NCBI GenBank assembly: GCA_964369625.1
Contig: CAYJFC010000002.1
Coordinates: forward strand, 5,502-69,501
DNA from: an uncultured Muribaculaceae bacterium
Lineage (GTDB): Bacteria > Bacillota_I > Bacilli_A > RF39 > UBA660
Direction: 5' to 3'
Length of the DNA stretch: 64,000 nt
How positions within the stretch are numbered: position 1 is the stretch's first letter; every line of letters begins with the position of its first letter. Shown here piece by piece: positions 2,771 through 18,661 of the stretch. A program made the translations under genes and the position numbers. The notes under the pieces are model-generated. The model did not search any database and was not told where the DNA came from. It was given only the letters and a program-made list of their open reading frames with translations.

Positions 2771-2787
2771 ATTACATCTACTTTTTT
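2767..2787. terminator. Bidirectional intrinsic terminator shared by the convergent lysozyme and Nudix genes.
   Basis: GTAGAT-TAC-ATCTAC stem-loop flanked by A-run (2762-2766) and TTTTTT (2782-2787). Both stop codons lie within the stem. Confidence 0.6.
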
Positions 2788-3278
2788 AAAAGATAATCCA
2801 AAATAATTGAACGATTAGATATTCTAATCTTTTTTTCTTTCAACATATTTTTTAATTTTTCTTTATTTATAAATTCAGCATACTCTACTTCACTTTTTTG
2901 ATATATTAATTTTTTTATATCAACATCCATCTTTAGATAAAAAACATCCCATATTTGATGAGTCTCTTTAAAAGTTTGAAATATTGATATGTCTTTGTGA
3001 TTTATATCCAGTCCTATTTCTTCCTTAACTTCTTTAACTATACATGTAATTGAGTCATCTCCACTTATAACATGACCTCCTGTTAAAGCAAAGATACTTC
3101 CTTTTTCCTTAGAGGTATACTGCATTAATATTTCCCCTTTAGTATTTTCTATAATTATAACTGCTATTAAATAGTAATAACCATCTTCAACTTCATTTCT
3201 GACATTTTTTGTTCTCAAAATTTTTTTCCCTGTAAACACATTATTACAATTATATAAATCTAAATATTCTTTTTTCAT
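2778..3278 (-). CDS. Nudix hydrolase (166 aa).
   Basis: Nudix box variant GGHVISGDDSITCIVKEVKEEIGLDI (G-x5-D-x7-KEVxEExGL). Confidence 0.6.
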   Translation of the reverse strand: MKKEYLDLYNCNNVFTGKKILRTKNVRNEVEDGYYYLIAVIIIENTKGEILMQYTSKEKGSIFALTGGHVISGDDSITCIVKEVKEEIGLDINHKDISIFQTFKETHQIWDVFYLKMDVDIKKLIYQKSEVEYAEFINKEKLKNMLKEKKIRISNRSIILDYLLKK

Positions 3279-4199: not shown

Positions 4200-4793
4200 T
4201 CATAAATTATTTTTTTGTAAATCTTTTAATGAATATCCCATTTTTTCAAGGTAATAATATATTTTTTCGACTGGAATCCCCAATATGTTATAGTAGCTTC
4301 CATCAATTTTTTCTATAAAATTTGATAATATAGTTTCTATAATGTAACCAGATGCATGCATAATACCTTTTTCATTTTCTAAATAATAATTTATATCTTC
4401 TTCCTTTATTTTTCTTAATGATATCTTAGTAATTTGATAGTCTGTTATAATTTCTTTTGTATTATTATTTATAATAGTAATGCCAGTTACAACTTCTGAA
4501 GTTTTCCCCATAGTAAGCAATATATTTTCTTTAGCTTCTTCTATAGATTTTGGTTTTTCCATTACTTTTCCATTAATATAAACTACTGTATCTAGTCCTA
4601 TAATAATATTATCGTTTTTATCACATATAGCATTACTAGCCTTCCCTAATGATAAAGCCTTAACATATTCATATACATCATCACGATTATCTAATTCTTC
4701 TACAAAGTTACTTTTTACACATTCATGATTAAGATGTACCTTACTAAGTATTTCGCTCTTAAATTTAGAAGTACTTGCCAACATTAATTTCAT
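4200..4793 (-). CDS. maf: Maf-family nucleoside triphosphate pyrophosphatase with atypical N-terminal motif.
   Basis: LASTSKFK (versus canonical LASxSPRR), GLDTVV, EKPKSIEEA motifs. Start ATG is adjacent to the stop of the upstream phosphatase gene. Confidence 0.7.
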   Translation of the reverse strand: MKLMLASTSKFKSEILSKVHLNHECVKSNFVEELDNRDDVYEYVKALSLGKASNAICDKNDNIIIGLDTVVYINGKVMEKPKSIEEAKENILLTMGKTSEVVTGITIINNNTKEIITDYQITKISLRKIKEEDINYYLENEKGIMHASGYIIETILSNFIEKIDGSYYNILGIPVEKIYYYLEKMGYSLKDLQKNNL

Positions 4794-4794
4794 A

Positions 4795-5331
4795 TTAATC
4801 CTCTTTTCTTAAATCATAAGTAATAAATTCACAATTATTTAATTTATAACTATCATAATCATCATTTTTAGGGAATCCCTCAAAATATATTCTCATATAA
4901 ATACTAGTTCCTGCATGTGTAACAACTAATATATTCTTATCTGCATACTTTTCTTTAATTTCATCTAGAAAGTTAAATACACGATTCAGCAAATTCTTAG
5001 TAGGCTCAATATTATATTTTTCAATGCATTTTTCATCTCTATAATTAATGATTTTAATTATTTCATCAACATGCATACCTTCTAAATCGCCATTACCTCT
5101 TTCGATAATTCTATCATCAATAGTTATTTTTTCATTAGTAATAATTGATGCAGTTTTTAAAGCTCTTGAAAGAGGACTAGAATATACAACATCAAATTTT
5201 ATATTCTTTAATTTTTCTTTAACAATTCCAGCTTCATAAATTCCAGTTTCATTTAATGGTATATCAGCTTGCCCTTGATGTTTTTTTAATTTGTTCCAAT
5301 TTGTTTGACCATGCCTTACTATATATAACAT
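4795..5331 (-). CDS. Histidine phosphatase (phosphoglycerate-mutase family), 178 aa. True start is internal to the track ORF.
   Basis: MLYIVRHGQTNWN motif. GGAGG SD (reverse complement of 5336-5340) 4 nt before ATG at 5331. The 15 extra N-terminal codons in the track lack an RBS. Confidence 0.7.
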   Translation of the reverse strand: MLYIVRHGQTNWNKLKKHQGQADIPLNETGIYEAGIVKEKLKNIKFDVVYSSPLSRALKTASIITNEKITIDDRIIERGNGDLEGMHVDEIIKIINYRDEKCIEKYNIEPTKNLLNRVFNFLDEIKEKYADKNILVVTHAGTSIYMRIYFEGFPKNDDYDSYKLNNCEFITYDLRKED

Positions 5332-5396
5332 ACTACCTCCATTTTTATCATTATAACATAAAAAATAGATAATCAATATTATCTATTTAACTAATC

Positions 5397-5999
5397 TTAT
5401 CTAACATATGTACTTACATGTGTTAAATAAGATTCATCTTTAACTATTATATTATCATTTTCAAATAAGTGTAATATATTTTCTCCGGTAGTAACCGAAT
5501 AAAAATTTTCACCAATTGAAAGTGTATTTTCTTCTCTTAGTAAATTACAAACTATATCTAATTTATTTTTTTCTTTTTTTAAATCATCACTATTTCCCAG
5601 ATCAACTAACTTATTTTCTATATCGTTTCTATTAACTAACCAGTTTTTTGATAATTTGTATTTTTTTATTTCTTCTTTATCAAAATTAAATGGCGACTCT
5701 AAAAAATCTTGTCTACTAGAGCACTCTCTTTGTTTTTCACTAATAGTATACGCTTTAAGCGGTAAATCACTTATAATTTCAAATGCACATAAAATATCAT
5801 TTTTTGCCATTAATATATAATCTATATTCATTTTTTCTATTCCTGCTAATATTATTTCCAAAACATTTTTTGATGCATGGTATTTTTCCTCAGTATTATA
5901 TTTACACTGTAAATAAGCTGAATTAACTAAAGATACAGGCACGTAAAGCGCTAATATATCCTCATCTTGTATTATTTCATTATACGAATAATTTTTCAT
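5397..5999 (-). CDS. Hypothetical protein (200 aa), no recognisable motif.
   Basis: Long ORF in AT-rich DNA, tightly packed in a co-directional operon. Confidence 0.5.
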   Translation of the reverse strand: MKNYSYNEIIQDEDILALYVPVSLVNSAYLQCKYNTEEKYHASKNVLEIILAGIEKMNIDYILMAKNDILCAFEIISDLPLKAYTISEKQRECSSRQDFLESPFNFDKEEIKKYKLSKNWLVNRNDIENKLVDLGNSDDLKKEKNKLDIVCNLLREENTLSIGENFYSVTTGENILHLFENDNIIVKDESYLTHVSTYVR

Positions 6000-6053
6000 A
6001 TCTTTCTCCTTATATAATTATATTATATCACTATAATTGATATTTTAGAACCT

Positions 6054-7103
6054 CTATTTTACTTTTATCTCTACTTCATTTAGAATATCATTATTTACTT
6101 CCAAATCATTAATTTTAAGTTGTAATTTATCTTCTGGACCACTAGGTATATTAGTTATATCTATATTTTCATAATGATATGCCATTCTTAAACAAAGATT
6201 AATTAATTTATTTGTGATGTTATACTGTATGTTATCAGCATTAATTAATTTTAACTTACAATCATATTTTGATTGGTCATTATAATACTTATTTTTATTG
6301 TATATTGATAATAGTTTAGCATTATATCTTATAGGCATCATATGAATAACCTCAATATCTTTTATACTTTTTGCAAAAGCCGTTCTTATAATACTATTAA
6401 ATGCGTATACAAAACTGTGAGTAACATTCATAATATCATCATCAAAAGATATATCACCATTTAATTTATAAAGTTTTCTATTTACTTTTTTTGCAAATTT
6501 ATTCGTATTATTTTTATTTGACTGCATAGCATATAAATATAATTTATTATCAGAAATACCATAATATATAAGAGGAAAAAAATATTCCAATCCATTTAAG
6601 GATAATTTAATTTCTAAAGCATAAGGCGTTTCATTAACTATTTTACTTTTAATAGTTTTAACTATTAAATCAGATTCAAAAAAAGAAGAATATTCAAAGC
6701 AAGTTTCATTTATCAATTTATTTTCAAAAAACTGTATTCTATTTTTTAAAAAATATATAGGATTTTCAAAATCATATACAGTAGCATTTGACCACAATAA
6801 AGATAAAATTGTTTTGATTTTATAATAATCATTACAATCATCTTCAAGTAATTCTTCAAATTCATAAAAATCTAGCGCTTTTTCTACATAAATGCCTAGT
6901 AATTCGTTAAACAATGATATATTATTTATTTTTAATGTCGGAACAGTATATTCATTAAAAGTATCATTACATTTCATATCAATTCCTAATTCAGAAATTT
7001 TAGTATTAAAAAGTATATTATATTTAAAATAACTTTCTACACATCCTTTAGATGCCTCTTGAATTATTTCTTCAAAAAATATTTTAATACATTTTTTATC
7101 CAT
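6054..7103 (-). CDS. Hypothetical protein (349 aa), no recognisable motif.
   Basis: Long ORF. A 4-nt gap separates it from the upstream kinase gene. Confidence 0.5.
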   Translation of the reverse strand: MDKKCIKIFFEEIIQEASKGCVESYFKYNILFNTKISELGIDMKCNDTFNEYTVPTLKINNISLFNELLGIYVEKALDFYEFEELLEDDCNDYYKIKTILSLLWSNATVYDFENPIYFLKNRIQFFENKLINETCFEYSSFFESDLIVKTIKSKIVNETPYALEIKLSLNGLEYFFPLIYYGISDNKLYLYAMQSNKNNTNKFAKKVNRKLYKLNGDISFDDDIMNVTHSFVYAFNSIIRTAFAKSIKDIEVIHMMPIRYNAKLLSIYNKNKYYNDQSKYDCKLKLINADNIQYNITNKLINLCLRMAYHYENIDITNIPSGPEDKLQLKINDLEVNNDILNEVEIKVK

Positions 7104-7107
7104 ATAT

Positions 7108-7923
7108 TTACCCCTCTAATTTTTTTATTTCATCCCATTTATTTGCATATTTTTGCATATCAGATAGCATATATTTATATGCTCTACTCATTCTAATAAA
7201 GAAAATAATTTTAATATAAGAAGAAATATATTTTTCCTCTACTTCGCATAGTGAAATTATTTCTTTAAGTGATATCACATCAAATAATGTTGCATCAGAA
7301 AAACAATAAAAAATAAAATCATAAACAGGGTCACCAATTAAAGTTTCTGGATCAATTATAGCGACAAAATTATTATCTTTAACCATAGTATTATGTAGTC
7401 CAAAATCTCCATGAATAAGCTTTTTTTCAAAAGTATAATTCTTCATTTTATATAGTTCATCATTTATTATTTCAAAAGTTTCATTATCAAAATAATGGGT
7501 TAGAACTTCTCTTGCATCACTGCATTCATCCTGTAAAAATTCACACCATGAATTTTTAATATTATTATAATATCCATATCCATTACAATTAATTCTTTTA
7601 TAACTTTTAGTTATATCATATATAATCTTAATTAAATTAATTATTGGTCTCGCATCTTTACAATCATTTGCTTCCAGCATTTTATATACTATAAATTCAT
7701 TATCAACATCAATATCAATAAACTTTGGATAAAATTTATTTTCATATATCGAAAAATAAAATGCTTCTCCTTCTAAAACTTTTTTCTTCTTAAATTTAAA
7801 AAAATATTCATTATTAACATTATATGCTCTACTTTTACTACCACTTTCAATTAATTTACAATCAACTAAAGTAATATTTTTTTTTGACAAATATTTTTTT
7901 ATTATATTTACATCTCTTTCCAT
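7108..7923 (-). CDS. APH/choline-kinase-fold small-molecule phosphotransferase (CotS/APH family), 271 aa.
   Basis: Catalytic loop HGDFGLHNTMV and metal-binding IIDPETLIGDPVYDF. ATP-lysine region FKFKKKKVLEGE. Confidence 0.7.
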   Translation of the reverse strand: MERDVNIIKKYLSKKNITLVDCKLIESGSKSRAYNVNNEYFFKFKKKKVLEGEAFYFSIYENKFYPKFIDIDVDNEFIVYKMLEANDCKDARPIINLIKIIYDITKSYKRINCNGYGYYNNIKNSWCEFLQDECSDAREVLTHYFDNETFEIINDELYKMKNYTFEKKLIHGDFGLHNTMVKDNNFVAIIDPETLIGDPVYDFIFYCFSDATLFDVISLKEIISLCEVEEKYISSYIKIIFFIRMSRAYKYMLSDMQKYANKWDEIKKLEG

Positions 7924-7951: not shown

Positions 7952-8067
7952 TTTCGAAGCAAAAATAAATTTATATATTCAATTTTTCTTTTTCTAGTTT
8001 ATATTCATAAATAAACTTTTTGTAATCATCTTCTAATTTTACTGTTCCTTTGATTAATCCCACTGCG

Positions 8068-8190
8068 CACCTCTACTTAAAGTATATCATTTTTTACTTA
8101 TATTTAAAACTATTCCTATACTTGCAAGTGAAATTAATAAACTAGACCCACCATAACTAAGAAAAGGTAGAGTTACCCCCGTCACGTATA
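8068..8190. repeat. Direct-repeat copy A (about 89% identical to 9567-9692): duplicated 3' end of ftsW plus about 25 nt downstream including an SD-like AGAGGTG.
   Basis: By-eye alignment 8085-8190 versus 9588-9695 gives about 11 mismatches per 104 nt. The shared CACCTCT reverse-complement SD lies at 8068-8074 and 9567-9573. Confidence 0.8.
8087..8190 (-). pseudogene. Start-less fragment encoding the last 29 codons of FtsW ([29 protein letters not shown]), identical in protein to the real FtsW C-terminus.
   Basis: Minus-strand translation of 8087-8176 is identical at all 29 aa to the C-terminus of the 9591-10673 product. All 8 differing codons are synonymous. The frame has no Met and an upstream in-frame stop at 8236-8238. 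Confidence 0.7.
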
Positions 8191-8240: not shown

Positions 8241-9563
8241 TTAAAATAATTTTAATTTCTTTCTAACTATTTTTTCATTATTTTTAGAACCAGTTCCTAA
8301 AGAAACTATATTTGAATTTGTTTCATCTTCTAACCATTCTAAATAATTTCTTATATATCTATTAAAGTATATATCATCATAACGACCTATTACCTTTGAA
8401 TAGTTAATATCAAGATGTTGGAAAAAGTTTAAGTATAAATAATTTGGATCATTTACTATACAATTATTTTTAAGTTTTTTAATATCTAAATCAAACACTC
8501 TTCTTTCTTTTTTTGTAACAGTAGTTGTTTCAGATAAATCTTTTATTTCCCCAAAATCATAAAATTCACTACTATATGTAACATTATTTTGTAGTTTATT
8601 ATATAATCTTTCTAACTCCAGTAATTTAATATTATTAAGATTATTCAAATCAACTTCACCATTAAATACTTGTAGGAGTTGTTCCTGTGAAAATTTATTT
8701 ATTATAAATTCAATATATTCTTTATCGATAATAAAACTTAAATCATCAAACATATCTATAGTCGGATAACTTTTATTTAAAGATGAAATATTTATATGTG
8801 ACCAAGTAAGTTCGTTACCAGTTCCATACCTACCTGTATTAATATAATTTCCATTATAAGAAATGTTACTAATTCTTATAGGAAACGGCCTAATAACCAT
8901 TAAAGTATCTAAAAGTCTTAAAGGTGATATTCCTGAATCTGCTAATAACTGAGAGGTAGAAACATTTCTACTTGTTACATATGGGTAATTTCCACTATGA
9001 TTAAGTGATAAATCAGCCCCTTGCGACCCTTCTAATAAAACATATCCTTGAATGTTATTTAAATGCTTATTAATTTTTTCTAAATAGTCATCATTTTTAA
9101 TTACTATAGCATTTTTATATCCTTTGAAAAATTCTAAATCAGGATTTCTAGTTACTTTTTCTGATATAGCCGTTCCACAACCTTTAAATGTAGAGCCAAA
9201 TTTCAAATTGTTTTTTTCGTATTCTTTGTGTCTATCATCTATAATTGGTACCATTTCATGAACATATATCTTTCTATCTCCAAGTAAGTCTTTTATACTT
9301 TCATATTCAACAATAAAATCATTCATATCTATTATTGACCCAGGACCTATAAATAGTTCAGCTTTTTGATTTACAATGGTTACTGGAATATTTCTAAATA
9401 CATGTTTTAATCCATTTTCATCAACAAAGGTGTGACCTGCATTAGGCATATTATTAGTTATTGTAGCAACTATATTATAATCTGTTGCTATCTCTCCAAT
9501 TACTTTACCTTTACCACAGCTACCTGCTGCTCCATCAATAATCGAAATAACATTTCTATTCAT
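8241..9563 (-). CDS. Adenylosuccinate-synthetase (PurA)-family ligase, non-canonical. P-loop is GSCGKGK instead of GDEGKGK and the Arg cluster is lost (440 aa).
   Basis: PurA motifs GSCGKGKV, NAGHT, GSTFKGCGTAISEKV (compare GTTGRGIGP) and EGSQGADLSLNHSGNYPYVTSRN (compare EGAQGxLLDIDHGTYPYVTSSN). NTGRYGTGNELTW replaces TTGRRRRTGW. SD AAGAGGTG lies 5 nt before ATG. Confidence 0.75.
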   Translation of the reverse strand: MNRNVISIIDGAAGSCGKGKVIGEIATDYNIVATITNNMPNAGHTFVDENGLKHVFRNIPVTIVNQKAELFIGPGSIIDMNDFIVEYESIKDLLGDRKIYVHEMVPIIDDRHKEYEKNNLKFGSTFKGCGTAISEKVTRNPDLEFFKGYKNAIVIKNDDYLEKINKHLNNIQGYVLLEGSQGADLSLNHSGNYPYVTSRNVSTSQLLADSGISPLRLLDTLMVIRPFPIRISNISYNGNYINTGRYGTGNELTWSHINISSLNKSYPTIDMFDDLSFIIDKEYIEFIINKFSQEQLLQVFNGEVDLNNLNNIKLLELERLYNKLQNNVTYSSEFYDFGEIKDLSETTTVTKKERRVFDLDIKKLKNNCIVNDPNYLYLNFFQHLDINYSKVIGRYDDIYFNRYIRNYLEWLEDETNSNIVSLGTGSKNNEKIVRKKLKLF

Positions 9564-9566
9564 AGT

Positions 9567-9692
9567 AACACCTCTTGGTTGTTTATTATATCACTTTTTA
9601 CTTATATTTAAAACTATTCCTATACTTGCTAGTGATATTAAAAGACTTGATCCACCATAACTAAGAAATGGTAGCGTTACCCCTGTAACAGG
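9567..9692. repeat. Direct-repeat copy B: the functional ftsW 3' end plus the SD of the PurA-like gene.
   Basis: See copy A. Homology decays upstream of codon -30 (VTG) and about 25 nt beyond the stop codon. Confidence 0.8.
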
Positions 9693-10673
9693 TATAAGTC
9701 CCACAACTACAGCTAAATTGAGAAGTGCTTGCACTAGTATTCCGCTTCCTATACCAAATGATAAATATTTTGCAAATAAATTTGTTTGTTTAAGAGATAT
9801 TTTAATAATTCTATAAAATATAAAAAAGAAGAAAGATGTAACAATTATGACTCCTAAAAAACCAAATTCTTCACTAATAATAGAAAATATAAAATCAGTT
9901 TGAGGCTCAGGAAGATAAAAATGTTTTTGCCTAGAAGACATAAATCCTTGTCCGAGAAGACCACCTGGTCCTATTGCATATAAACTTTGAATTATTTGAA
10001 AACCTGATCCAAGTGGATCACTCCATGGATTCAAAAACGATACAATTCTGGCAACTCTATAGGGTGCCGCTATAATTAAACCTACTACACCAAGCAACCC
10101 TGCTATACCTAATTTTATAAAAAAACTTAAGTTAACTCCAGAGGCAAATATTATAATTATATTAGTTAACACTAGTACTACACCCGTTCCAAAATCTGGT
10201 TCTAGCATAATTAAAGTAAATGTTAAAATAATAACACCTAAAAGCGGCATTATATTTTTTATATTATTATTGGTATTAATTTTATTTTTAGATAAATATT
10301 TAGATGTAAAAATAATTAAAGCTAATTTTGTAAATTCTGAAGGTTGTAATCCAAACGAACCTATACCAAACCAACTTCTAGATCCATTACGAACAACTCC
10401 TATCCCAGGAATAAGTACTAAAATTAATAATACGAAACATATTATAAAAATTAAATTACTTCTTTTTTCATAAAATTTATAATTAATTTTAGAAATAATA
10501 AATACTCCAATAATTCCTATTATTAAAAATAAACTCTGCTGCATAACAAAACGATACTGGTTATCAAATTTATATTCTGCCCATACATAACTAGAAGAAT
10601 ATATCATTATACAACCAAAAACACTTAATATAACAACACTTATTAAAAGTGGATAGTCTATTTTTTTACTCAT
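9591..10673 (-). CDS. SEDS-family peptidoglycan glycosyltransferase (FtsW/RodA/SpoVE), 360 aa.
   Basis: 10-TM profile. Typical SEDS C-terminus [23 protein letters not shown]. No obvious SD. Confidence 0.8.
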   Translation of the reverse strand: MSKKIDYPLLISVVILSVFGCIMIYSSSYVWAEYKFDNQYRFVMQQSLFLIIGIIGVFIISKINYKFYEKRSNLIFIICFVLLILVLIPGIGVVRNGSRSWFGIGSFGLQPSEFTKLALIIFTSKYLSKNKINTNNNIKNIMPLLGVIILTFTLIMLEPDFGTGVVLVLTNIIIIFASGVNLSFFIKLGIAGLLGVVGLIIAAPYRVARIVSFLNPWSDPLGSGFQIIQSLYAIGPGGLLGQGFMSSRQKHFYLPEPQTDFIFSIISEEFGFLGVIIVTSFFFFIFYRIIKISLKQTNLFAKYLSFGIGSGILVQALLNLAVVVGLIPVTGVTLPFLSYGGSSLLISLASIGIVLNISKK

Positions 10674-11921: not shown

Positions 11922-12404
11922 TTAGTATTCTCTGTTTACATGGTGAAATAATCGATTATATTTTATTATCTCATATAAAATATCAGGAACAACATTATAA
12001 TCTTTCAATTTATTTATTTCAATCCATTTAAAATATTCTTCACTGCTAGCTGTTTCATCTTGATTATATATTATTTCTGGAAATATATATTTATCAACTT
12101 TTAAAGATAATTCTCCAATAAAAAGAATTTCATGTCTACTTTTTTTATCAAAATCAGATTCGAAGAAATTTTCTACAATTCCTCTTGTTCTAACAAAATT
12201 GCATTCAAGTTTTGTTTCTTCGTAAATTTCTCTAAGCATCGCTTCATGTGCAGCTTCACCTACTTTGCATTTACCACCTGGAAGAGTTGCATAATCTGTT
12301 TTTTCATTAAATTGTAATAATACTTTTTTATTATGTATTACCAGTGCGCTAACTCTAAATACAAAATTCATTTTTTTATCTACTATTTTAATATCTTTTC
12401 CCAT
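11922..12404 (-). CDS. Nudix hydrolase (160 aa).
   Basis: Canonical Nudix box GGKCKVGEAAHEAMLREIYEETKLEC. Confidence 0.75.
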   Translation of the reverse strand: MGKDIKIVDKKMNFVFRVSALVIHNKKVLLQFNEKTDYATLPGGKCKVGEAAHEAMLREIYEETKLECNFVRTRGIVENFFESDFDKKSRHEILFIGELSLKVDKYIFPEIIYNQDETASSEEYFKWIEINKLKDYNVVPDILYEIIKYNRLFHHVNREY

Positions 12405-18262: not shown

Positions 18263-18661
18263 TTAGTTTATATTATTATATTTATCAATCGCATTTAAAA
18301 AAAGTTTTTTTGTTTCATCAAAATTTAAATGATTACATATTTCATTTATTTTAATAAATTCACCTTCGTTCACTTCACTTTCTTGAAGTAATATTTCATC
18401 ATTAAGAGGCTCTGCTAAATAGTAAATAACATCTTTATTTATATTTTCTTTAACTATATAACTTTCTATAAAATACTCATCACTTAATATTTTAATATCT
18501 ATATTAGTTTCTTCTTTAACTTCTCTTTTAGCAGTTTCTATGTAACTTTCCCCCGATTCCATATGACCTTTTGGAAAGCCCCAATGACCTTCCTTATGTT
18601 TAATCAGTAGTACTTTACCATTTTTAATAACTATTGCTCCGCAGCTTATTTCTTTTTTCAT
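18263..18661 (-). CDS. Nudix hydrolase (132 aa).
   Basis: Nudix box GHWGFPKGHMESGESYIETAKREVKEETNI. Confidence 0.75.
   Translation of the reverse strand: MKKEISCGAIVIKNGKVLLIKHKEGHWGFPKGHMESGESYIETAKREVKEETNIDIKILSDEYFIESYIVKENINKDVIYYLAEPLNDEILLQESEVNEGEFIKINEICNHLNFDETKKLFLNAIDKYNNIN

Follow-up and report, generated by a model that had tools for sequence, protein, structure and literature searches.

A PurZ-like ligase with a large insertion encoded on the chromosomes of low-GC gut Bacilli

Introduction

Adenylosuccinate synthetase (PurA) employs an aspartate, Asp13 of the motif GDEGKGK, as its catalytic base. PurZ of the phages phiVC8 and S-2L carries a serine at this position (S14 and S23, respectively), a replacement which has been used to define dZ genomes (bioRxiv 10.1101/2025.10.22.683976) and which, in the characterized enzymes, goes along with dGMP rather than IMP (PMC8342488). 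Conversion of the phage PurZ product to 2-aminoadenine (Z) nucleotides by enzymes of the host has been shown (PMC8342488, PMC12884076). The hosts listed for Z phages belong to the Pseudomonadota, Cyanobacteriota, and Actinomycetota (PMC12884076), and phages are the only source from which natural dZ-DNA has been reported, according to a paper from 2026 (PMC13128860); no description of a PurZ encoded on a bacterial chromosome was found in the literature. The gene analyzed here lies in a stretch of 64 kb (hereafter, the window; 25.5% GC) of contig CAYJFC010000002.1 and encodes a protein of 440 amino acids (aa), which an initial annotation, made by eye from the DNA, had assigned to the PurA superfamily. 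The protein belongs to a previously undescribed branch of PurZ-like enzymes which resides on bacterial chromosomes, and it contains a large insertion.

The PurZ-like protein and its active site

Membership in the superfamily is borne out by a Pfam match to PF00709 (adenylosuccinate synthetase; 106.4 bits at a gathering cutoff of 27) and by the predicted fold: an AlphaFold2 (AF2) model of the protein, with a mean predicted local distance difference test score (pLDDT) of 76.6, was matched by Foldseek to PurZ and PurA structures with a probability of 1.00, the top hits having target-normalized template modeling (TM) scores of 0.74–0.79. The cutoffs of the purA equivalog TIGR00184 (120.6 bits; cutoff 395.55) and of the archaeal-type PurA model PRK04293 (167.1 bits; cutoff 368) are both missed. 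The best matches in sequence as well as in fold are two PurZ enzymes, that of phiVC8 (DgsS, N6-succino-2-amino-2′-deoxyadenylate synthase; PDB 6FM1, 6FKO, 6TNH) and that of S-2L (7ODX). When solved structures were ranked by a profile of the family, phiVC8 PurZ came first (6e-41), followed by S-2L PurZ (1e-34), which is level with the PurA of P. horikoshii (2e-34); PurZ0 (3e-29) and the bacterial and eukaryotic PurA enzymes (1e-17 or weaker) came further down, and the Foldseek ranking has the same order. By its hidden Markov model (HMM) score, its fold, and its diagnostic residues, the protein falls in the serine-bearing radiation formed by PurZ and PurZ0.

The P-loop reads GSCGKGK, compared with GDEGKGK in E. 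coli PurA and GSTGKG in phiVC8 PurZ; S15 aligns with Asp13 and with the serine of the PurZ motif, and C16 occupies the position of E14. The exchange of the catalytic aspartate for serine, as in phage PurZ, had been noticed in the initial annotation and is upheld by the alignments: in 18 members of the family which are 55–68% identical to the query (alignment A1), S15 and C16 are invariant (18/18), and so are K18, N41, H44, T125, R139, Q181, and R230, the other catalytic residues of the superfamily. In total, 132 of the 440 columns do not vary across these members, all catalytic residues among them. The motifs NAGHT, EGSQG, and YPYVTSRN, likewise recognized at the outset, are all present, as is GST..G. 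A wider MAFFT alignment covered the 143 closest representatives of 50%-identity clusters (those of at least 300 aa among the best 150 in a set of 1.84 billion proteins); serine is found at the Asp13 position in all but about four of them.

The loop which binds L-aspartate is present in its PurZ form. The canonical PurA loop is TTGRRRR (with T301, R303, and R305), and E. coli T300-T301-G302-R303-R304-R305-R306 aligns with V349-T350-K351-K352-E353-R354-R355 of the PurZ-like protein, which has T350, K352 for R303, E353 for R304, and R354 and R355. K352 is the counterpart of phiVC8 K267, the residue named as the equivalent of R303 (PMC8342488), and the whole segment TTVTKKERR (aa 347–355) corresponds to TTVTKKVRR of the phiVC8 enzyme. 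HMMER aligns residues 339–403 (EIKDLSETTTVTKKERRVFDL...) with residues 274–339 of phiVC8 PurZ (QLGQVPELTTVTKKVRRVFSF...), pairing ETTTVTKKERRVF with ELTTVTKKVRRVF. V349, T350, K351, E353, and R354 are invariant in A1, and in the MAFFT alignment TTVT..RR occupies one block of columns in nearly all 143 representatives, with a few degenerate exceptions. The tip of the loop, TTVT, which is strictly conserved in PurZ (T273–T276 in S-2L; PMC8342488), is found as T347-T348-V349-T350. It had been proposed earlier that the arginine cluster for aspartate binding was lost, NTGRYGTG being read in its place; this segment sits in another, extended loop typical of PurZ, which follows R230-I231 and corresponds to the insertion A242–W250 after R240-V241 of S-2L PurZ (PMC8342488). 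The misalignment by eye arose because 89 residues (aa 255–343) separate the NTGRYGTG segment from the true loop. As the loop is present, the proposal of a different acceptor or nucleophile falls with its premise.

In the nucleotide pocket, the E. coli sequence L-T-K-L-D (K331 and D333 of the guanine motif (N/T)KxD) is aligned to L378-NFF-Q382. N305, F306, and Q308 of S-2L PurZ read the adenine of ATP or dATP (PMC8342488) and align with N379, F380, and Q382; N379-F380-F381-Q382 thus has the pattern N-F-x-(Q/N) of the PurZ pocket, which would make it a putative site for ATP or dATP. A further position of interest is V241 of S-2L PurZ, a valine which sterically excludes the 2′-OH of ribose (PMC8342488). 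Its place is taken by Ile231, invariant in A1; the bulkier side chain would fit a preference for deoxynucleotides but does not prove it.

The insertion comprises 89 residues between ELTW and the aspartate loop, where most relatives in the MAFFT alignment have 6–19. Its helices in the AF2 model span residues 254–263, 281–288, 293–300, and 311–324. It is less conserved than the core of the protein (majority-residue fraction 0.62 vs. 0.84), and a search with the insertion alone against Pfam and PDB by sequence gave no match.

Comparison with PurZ, PurZ0, and PurA

Common to the protein and to PurZ of phiVC8 and S-2L are the serine for Asp13, the TTVT-K-K-x-R-R loop, the LNF.(N/Q) pocket, the extended loop after R-V/I, and the short architecture, which lacks the C-terminal segment of approximately 40 residues found in bacterial PurA. 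Unlike PurZ, the protein has Cys16 (Thr in PurZ), Ala13 (an aromatic residue in PurZ), Ile231 (Val in PurZ), and the helical insertion; unlike phage PurZ, it is encoded in bacterial chromosomes and alone, without DatZ, MazZ, or DpoZ, and its carriers are low-GC gut Bacilli, which sets them apart from the hosts of Z phages. PurZ0, an enzyme of actinophages (Gordonia phage Archimedes, 7VF6; Ghobes and Wayne-like Arthrobacter phages), resembles the protein in that it has a serine in place of Asp13, carries the TTVT loop, and is of short architecture; however, PurZ0 has GSE together with L(T/S)F.D, which retains the aspartate of the guanine motif, whereas the PurZ-like protein has GSC and LNFFQ, and PurZ0 scores lower with the family profile and forms a separate clade. 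PurA (E. coli, 1ADE; the short archaeal form of P. horikoshii, 5K7X) shares the fold, the P-loop lysines, the histidine of NAGHT, GST, EGxQG, YPYVTS, and the arginine of the partner subunit (R139, equivalent to R143), but differs in the exchanges of D13 for serine, of TKLD for LNFFQ, and of TTGRRRR for TVTKKERR; identity to E. coli PurA is approximately 24%.

A neighbor-joining (NJ) tree rooted with E. coli PurA separates three groups: one with GSE and L(T/S)F.D, which includes PurZ0; one with GST and LNF.N, which includes PurZ of phiVC8, of ZP6, and of Acinetobacter and Klebsiella phages; and one with GSC and LNF.Q, made up of the PurZ-like protein, its long-form relatives (439–482 aa), and short forms (361–393 aa). 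The branching order is tentative because the tree carries no support values. Within the GSC clade, one protein of 372 aa (P0135) has aspartate restored at the Asp13 position (GDCGKGK), and its aspartate loop is degenerate. Some PurZ-like representatives are fused to extra domains of 200–400 residues (P0193, P0263, and P0275, 734–792 aa; P0196 and P0246, 551–562 aa).

Occurrence and chromosomal setting of the family

A word-indexed search retrieved 1292 homologs; the best 120 clusters among them are full length (439–488 aa) and 55–68% identical, and the GSC/LNF.Q subclade comprises more than 100 clusters at 90% identity. All loci of the family that were examined are chromosomal and belong to low-GC gut Bacilli: contigs are up to 700 kb long, and the neighbors include recG, pheST, greA, frr, murF, ddl, metK, parAB, and a gene for a type VII-like FtsK ATPase. 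Most contig names refer to metagenomes of animal gut, rumen, and caecum, and the labeled metagenome-assembled genomes with family members are called “Bacilli bacterium” and similar. The setting of a short-form clade member (L004) is chromosomal, too. The window itself carries, besides ftsW, genes for penicillin-binding proteins (PBPs), elongation factor P (EF-P), and Rel/SpoT, and an [FeFe]-hydrogenase-like gene; exact-sequence look-ups with its FtsW and with the protein P0001 gave no recorded match. A phage origin of the locus was considered and rejected: 2.9 million IMG/VR contigs and 50,697 phage genomes (INPHARED) hold no relative above approximately 35% identity, and none of the relatives found there, all at 35% or less, has the 89-residue insertion.

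When all open reading frames (ORFs) around 41 family loci were clustered, no conserved neighbor emerged; the commonest one, a Ppx/GppA-like protein of 298 aa, occurs at 6 loci which are apparently syntenic. PADLOC-DB 2.0 gave no hit for the PurZ-like gene or 6 of its neighbors in the window, and only two hits at chance level for 10 neighbors at other family loci.

Three copies of the gene look broken: L002:8001-9380 has an in-frame stop within the conserved SRNV...LLADSG motif, L138:7001-8373 a frameshift near residue 93, and L008:7974-9298, from a hybrid assembly, several frameshifts; they may be pseudogenes or assembly errors. At L007:1885-2679, a gene of the purine/uridine nucleoside phosphorylase family follows a distant clade member (35% identical, MWGSCGKGK); it is the sole neighbor from purine metabolism among the loci seen.

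Insertion at the 3′ end of ftsW

The initial annotation had taken flanking repeats as the mark of a recent insertion, and the gene is indeed flanked by a direct repeat of 103 nt, the copies of which are 89% identical and 1504 nt apart (Table 1). Both encode the identical 32 residues and a stop, all nucleotide differences being synonymous (11/11), and the C-terminal FtsW peptide they specify is also conserved in relatives; this indicates that the two copies diverged as working ends of ftsW in different genomes and were joined thereafter. Downstream of the displaced ftsW tail, the stub of the GrpB-family gene has its own AGAGGTG Shine-Dalgarno sequence and shares 81% nucleotide identity with the beginning of the GrpB gene of a related contig, L156 (L156:13826).

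The ftsW genes nearest to that of the window are 86%, 80%, and 74% identical at the aa level, and none of these three is followed by a PurZ-like gene. In L156, ftsW is followed by an insertion consisting of a 54-aa ORF, HIT and Fic genes, and then a displaced 3′ fragment of ftsW of 381 nt (L156:10600-10980), with an open frame for the last 127 residues; this scar is longer than that in the window and of the same kind. It seems that foreign cargo has repeatedly entered genomes of this group at the 3′ end of ftsW. The contig of the closest PurZ-like homolog (L001; 68% aa and 74% nt identity) starts at its left end with DNA 88.6% identical to the HIT-Fic segment of L156, followed by two unknown genes, the PurZ-like gene, and UDG and NUDIX genes; owing to this match, the L001 gene probably occupies the corresponding variable stretch beyond ftsW, the contig itself stopping short of ftsW. 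In relatives this stretch holds Fic, HIT, NUDIX, UDG, and APH-like genes.

The scars in the window and in L156 vary in length and share their end point, the end of ftsW homology. The simplest reading is that foreign DNA would be acquired by homology anchoring in the 3′ end of ftsW; its other end would have been closed by illegitimate joining or by a single crossover of the Campbell type. Of the earlier view that the gene is mobile, the insertion as such stands; the 1504-nt unit, however, holds the PurZ-like ORF only, with no recombinase or transposase, and the repeat is a duplicated ftsW end. Flanking repeats are absent at 11 other family loci and were rejected as a general trait of the gene, which is not a self-mobile element. 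Foreignness by composition was rejected as well, as the G+C content at third codon positions (GC3) is 0.122 compared with 0.11–0.13 in the neighboring genes; the donor was thus compositionally similar.

Transcription of the gene by read-through from ftsW, as had been suggested, is plausible; co-transcription is made probable by a gap of 27 nt between the two genes, in which no terminator-like site was found, and by the Shine-Dalgarno sequence just ahead of the ATG. A promoter scan was uninformative in DNA of 25% GC (28 sites vs. 24 expected by chance). As to the view that the Shine-Dalgarno sequence is embedded in the repeat, the gapless repeat extends approximately 4–8 nt past the ftsW stop codon, and the two copies have their Shine-Dalgarno sequences out of register.

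Table 1. Features of the PurZ-like gene and its surroundings; positions refer to the window
Feature	Position	Strand	Basis
Coding sequence of the PurZ-like ligase, adenylosuccinate-synthetase superfamily, Ser-bearing clade	8241..9563	minus	440-aa ORF; PF00709; NF038379 best NCBIfam model; phiVC8 and S-2L PurZ best structures
P-loop G14-S15-C16-G17-K18-G19-K20; S15 in place of catalytic Asp13 of E. coli PurA	9504..9524	minus	alignments
NTGRYGTG (aa 242–249), within the extended loop of PurZ type that follows R230-I231; distinct from the aspartate loop	8817..8840	minus	alignment
Family-specific insertion (aa 255–343), four predicted helices	8535..8801	minus	89 residues; AF2 model
Aspartate-binding loop T346-T-T-V-T-K-K-E-R-R355 (equivalent to E. 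coli T300–R306 and phiVC8 TTVTKKVRR)	8499..8528	minus	alignments
L378-N-F-F-Q382, putative adenine-nucleotide pocket replacing guanine-specific TKLD of PurA	8418..8432	minus	alignments
Shine-Dalgarno sequence of the PurZ-like gene (AGAGGTG; spacing to the ATG, 5 nt)	9569..9575	minus	sequence reading
ftsW (FTSW_RODA_SPOVE), directly upstream, probably co-transcribed	9591..10673	minus	Pfam, 384 bits
Repeat copy B, live ftsW 3′ end (last 33 codons and stop)	9587..9689	minus	repeat comparison
Repeat copy A, displaced ftsW 3′ end (99-nt tail)	8083..8185	minus	repeat comparison
5′ stub of GrpB-family gene (32-codon ORF, GTG start), former ftsW neighbor	7967..8062	minus	comparison with L156

Proposed function and alternatives

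By analogy to PurZ of phiVC8 and S-2L, the gene, which is solitary and chromosomal, may encode an active PurZ-type ligase rather than a canonical PurA and have been acquired horizontally; a probability of about 0.5 is assigned to this reading. The chemistry most likely catalyzed would be the joining of aspartate to a guanine (deoxy)nucleotide at the expense of ATP. The substrate of the enzyme would be a guanine nucleotide, dGMP most probably, the O6 of which would be phosphorylated with ATP or dATP, not GTP; the amino group of L-aspartate, held by the loop with T350, K352, R354, and R355, would then displace the phosphate, yielding N6-succino-2-amino-(deoxy)adenylate, which the adenylosuccinate lyase (PurB) and the nucleotide kinases of the cell itself could convert to Z nucleotides. 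One may speculate that the helical insertion, placed directly before the aspartate loop, gates or regulates the latter. The gene would have entered as cargo of 1.5 kb by recombination anchored in the 3′ end of ftsW and be transcribed by read-through from there; its purpose might concern nucleotide pools, DNA modification, or phage defense. Directly observed are the homology, the diagnostic residues, the location on chromosomes away from phages, and the scar of the insertion; the substrates, the preference for deoxy- or ribonucleotides, the part played by the helical insertion, and the cellular purpose are inferred.

Several points weigh against the assignment as a PurZ-type ligase. Although NF038379 ranks top among the NCBIfam models, its score of 193.1 bits lies under the cutoff of 300, and the proposed specificity is drawn from enzymes with which the protein shares only approximately 33% identity, in an alignment confined to its N-terminal 58%. 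Cys16, Ala13, Ile231, and the insertion, all of them family specific, could shift the specificity. None of the PurZ partners of phages, DatZ, MazZ/DUF550, DutZ/DmtZ, or DpoZ, is encoded among the neighbors at the 41 loci, and constitutive synthesis of Z nucleotides is toxic in E. coli (PMC8342488), which makes it hard to see what role a lone host gene would have. Finally, the identity spread of the family (approximately 58%) resembles that of FtsW (approximately 70%), possibly in the same organisms.

This last point suits an alternative which is considered improbable but is the most serious one, namely a housekeeping role as adenylosuccinate synthetase: in a lineage of gut Bacilli with reduced genomes, canonical purA would have been replaced by a short PurA, phage-derived or archaeal-like, which would make adenylosuccinate from IMP and aspartate and take its phosphate from ATP. 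One source annotates a family member as adenylosuccinate synthetase, the gene is present as a single copy in ordinary chromosomal surroundings (pheST, murF, ddl, metK, recG), the nucleoside phosphorylase family gene in L007 follows a clade member, and the family counts hundreds of clusters, its identity profile running parallel to that of FtsW. No second PurA homolog is present within the window, but 64 kb is too small to show the absence of purA from the genome. The invariant serine, linked to dGMP rather than IMP in the characterized enzymes (PMC8342488), argues against this scenario, as do the purA equivalog score far under its cutoff, the recent insertion at a site where the three nearest ftsW relatives lack the gene, and the possibly broken copies in L002, L138, and L008, assembly errors permitting. 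Somewhat less probable still is that the gene is an anti-phage or competitive accessory which depletes dGMP, dGTP, and (d)ATP or swamps the infected cell with Z nucleotides, the insertion acting as a regulatory switch. Such a role concerns function and is compatible with PurZ-type chemistry; a lone, horizontally acquired gene which has a different place in almost every genome examined, and here lies in the variable stretch downstream of ftsW, would agree with it. Yet PADLOC gave no match for the gene and none above chance level for 16 neighbors, defense genes are not enriched across the 41 loci, and no literature was found that links the PurA superfamily to defense.

The model of the initial annotation, a purine-nucleotide ligase devoid of aspartate binding and with a different acceptor or nucleophile, has become quite unlikely. 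It could draw on Cys16, Ala13, Ile231, and E353 (R304 in PurA) near the active site and on the insertion right before the aspartate loop, but the loop T346–R355 is there, differs little from its counterpart in phiVC8 PurZ, and is conserved in the family; and since phiVC8 PurZ has a valine at the position of E353, R304 is not required in PurZ-type enzymes. Least credible of all is the view that a phage gene has left a relic here which is decaying or has lost its catalytic activity: possible pseudogenes in some relatives and the degenerate aspartate loop of P0135 would be in line with decay, but the ORF is intact, more than 100 clusters are full length, and the invariant columns of A1 include every catalytic residue across members that are 55–68% identical.

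It is even conceivable, if rather unlikely, that a PurZ-type enzyme is possessed and used by cellular organisms as well as by phages, and that gut Bacilli, a widespread group, make Z nucleotides from guanine nucleotides by way of this chromosomal gene, be it to put some Z into their own DNA or to change nucleotide pools for attack or protection in conflict with phages, the insertion being a control element; whether some bacteria make Z nucleotides, and why, can be tested with this family. PurZ homology serves to predict Z genomes; as the family is an intact one of the PurZ clade, chromosomal at all examined loci and without the phage partners, a PurZ-like hit with the diagnostic serine cannot on its own count as evidence of a Z-genome phage. 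The automatic annotation of the family as adenylosuccinate synthetase is probably wrong and distorts reconstructions of the purine pathway in gut Bacilli. Further, the scars at the ftsW end document how, in a simple way and without any recombinase, single cargo genes come into these genomes.

Other features of the window and of related contigs

Three NUDIX hydrolase genes (2778-3278, 11922-12404, and 18263-18661, minus strand) and a gene for a Maf nucleotide pyrophosphatase (4200-4793, minus strand) are found no further than 16 kb from the PurZ-like gene. In L001, L114, L130, and L135, too, the PurZ-like gene has NUDIX genes nearby; those near 5 loci belong to more than one subfamily. A MazZ-like role, in which dGMP would be supplied, is conceivable but unsupported.

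Three family contigs (L001, L003, L005) carry the label “uncultured Muribaculaceae” (Bacteroidota); the nucleotide identity of 74–89% between L001 and the low-GC, Bacilli-type DNA of the window and of L156 fits mis-binning, at least for L001. In the window, two ORFs of 349 and 200 aa (5397-7103, minus strand), for which neither Pfam nor PADLOC gave a match, belong to the variable stretch that follows ftsW; they are flanked by genes for an APH-like kinase (7108-7923) and a histidine phosphatase (4795-5376). In the contigs L158, L159, and L160, which contain the dcw cluster and are otherwise identical, the PBP gene upstream of mraY is truncated in the former two (L158:3043-5872, 345 aa; L159:3289-5872, 270 aa) as compared with the third (L160:4064-5872, 602 aa). 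A large serine recombinase gene precedes the truncated PBP gene, in L158 together with a gene for a coupling protein of a type IV secretion system (T4SS), and an integrative element appears to reside in the PBP gene of L158 and L159.

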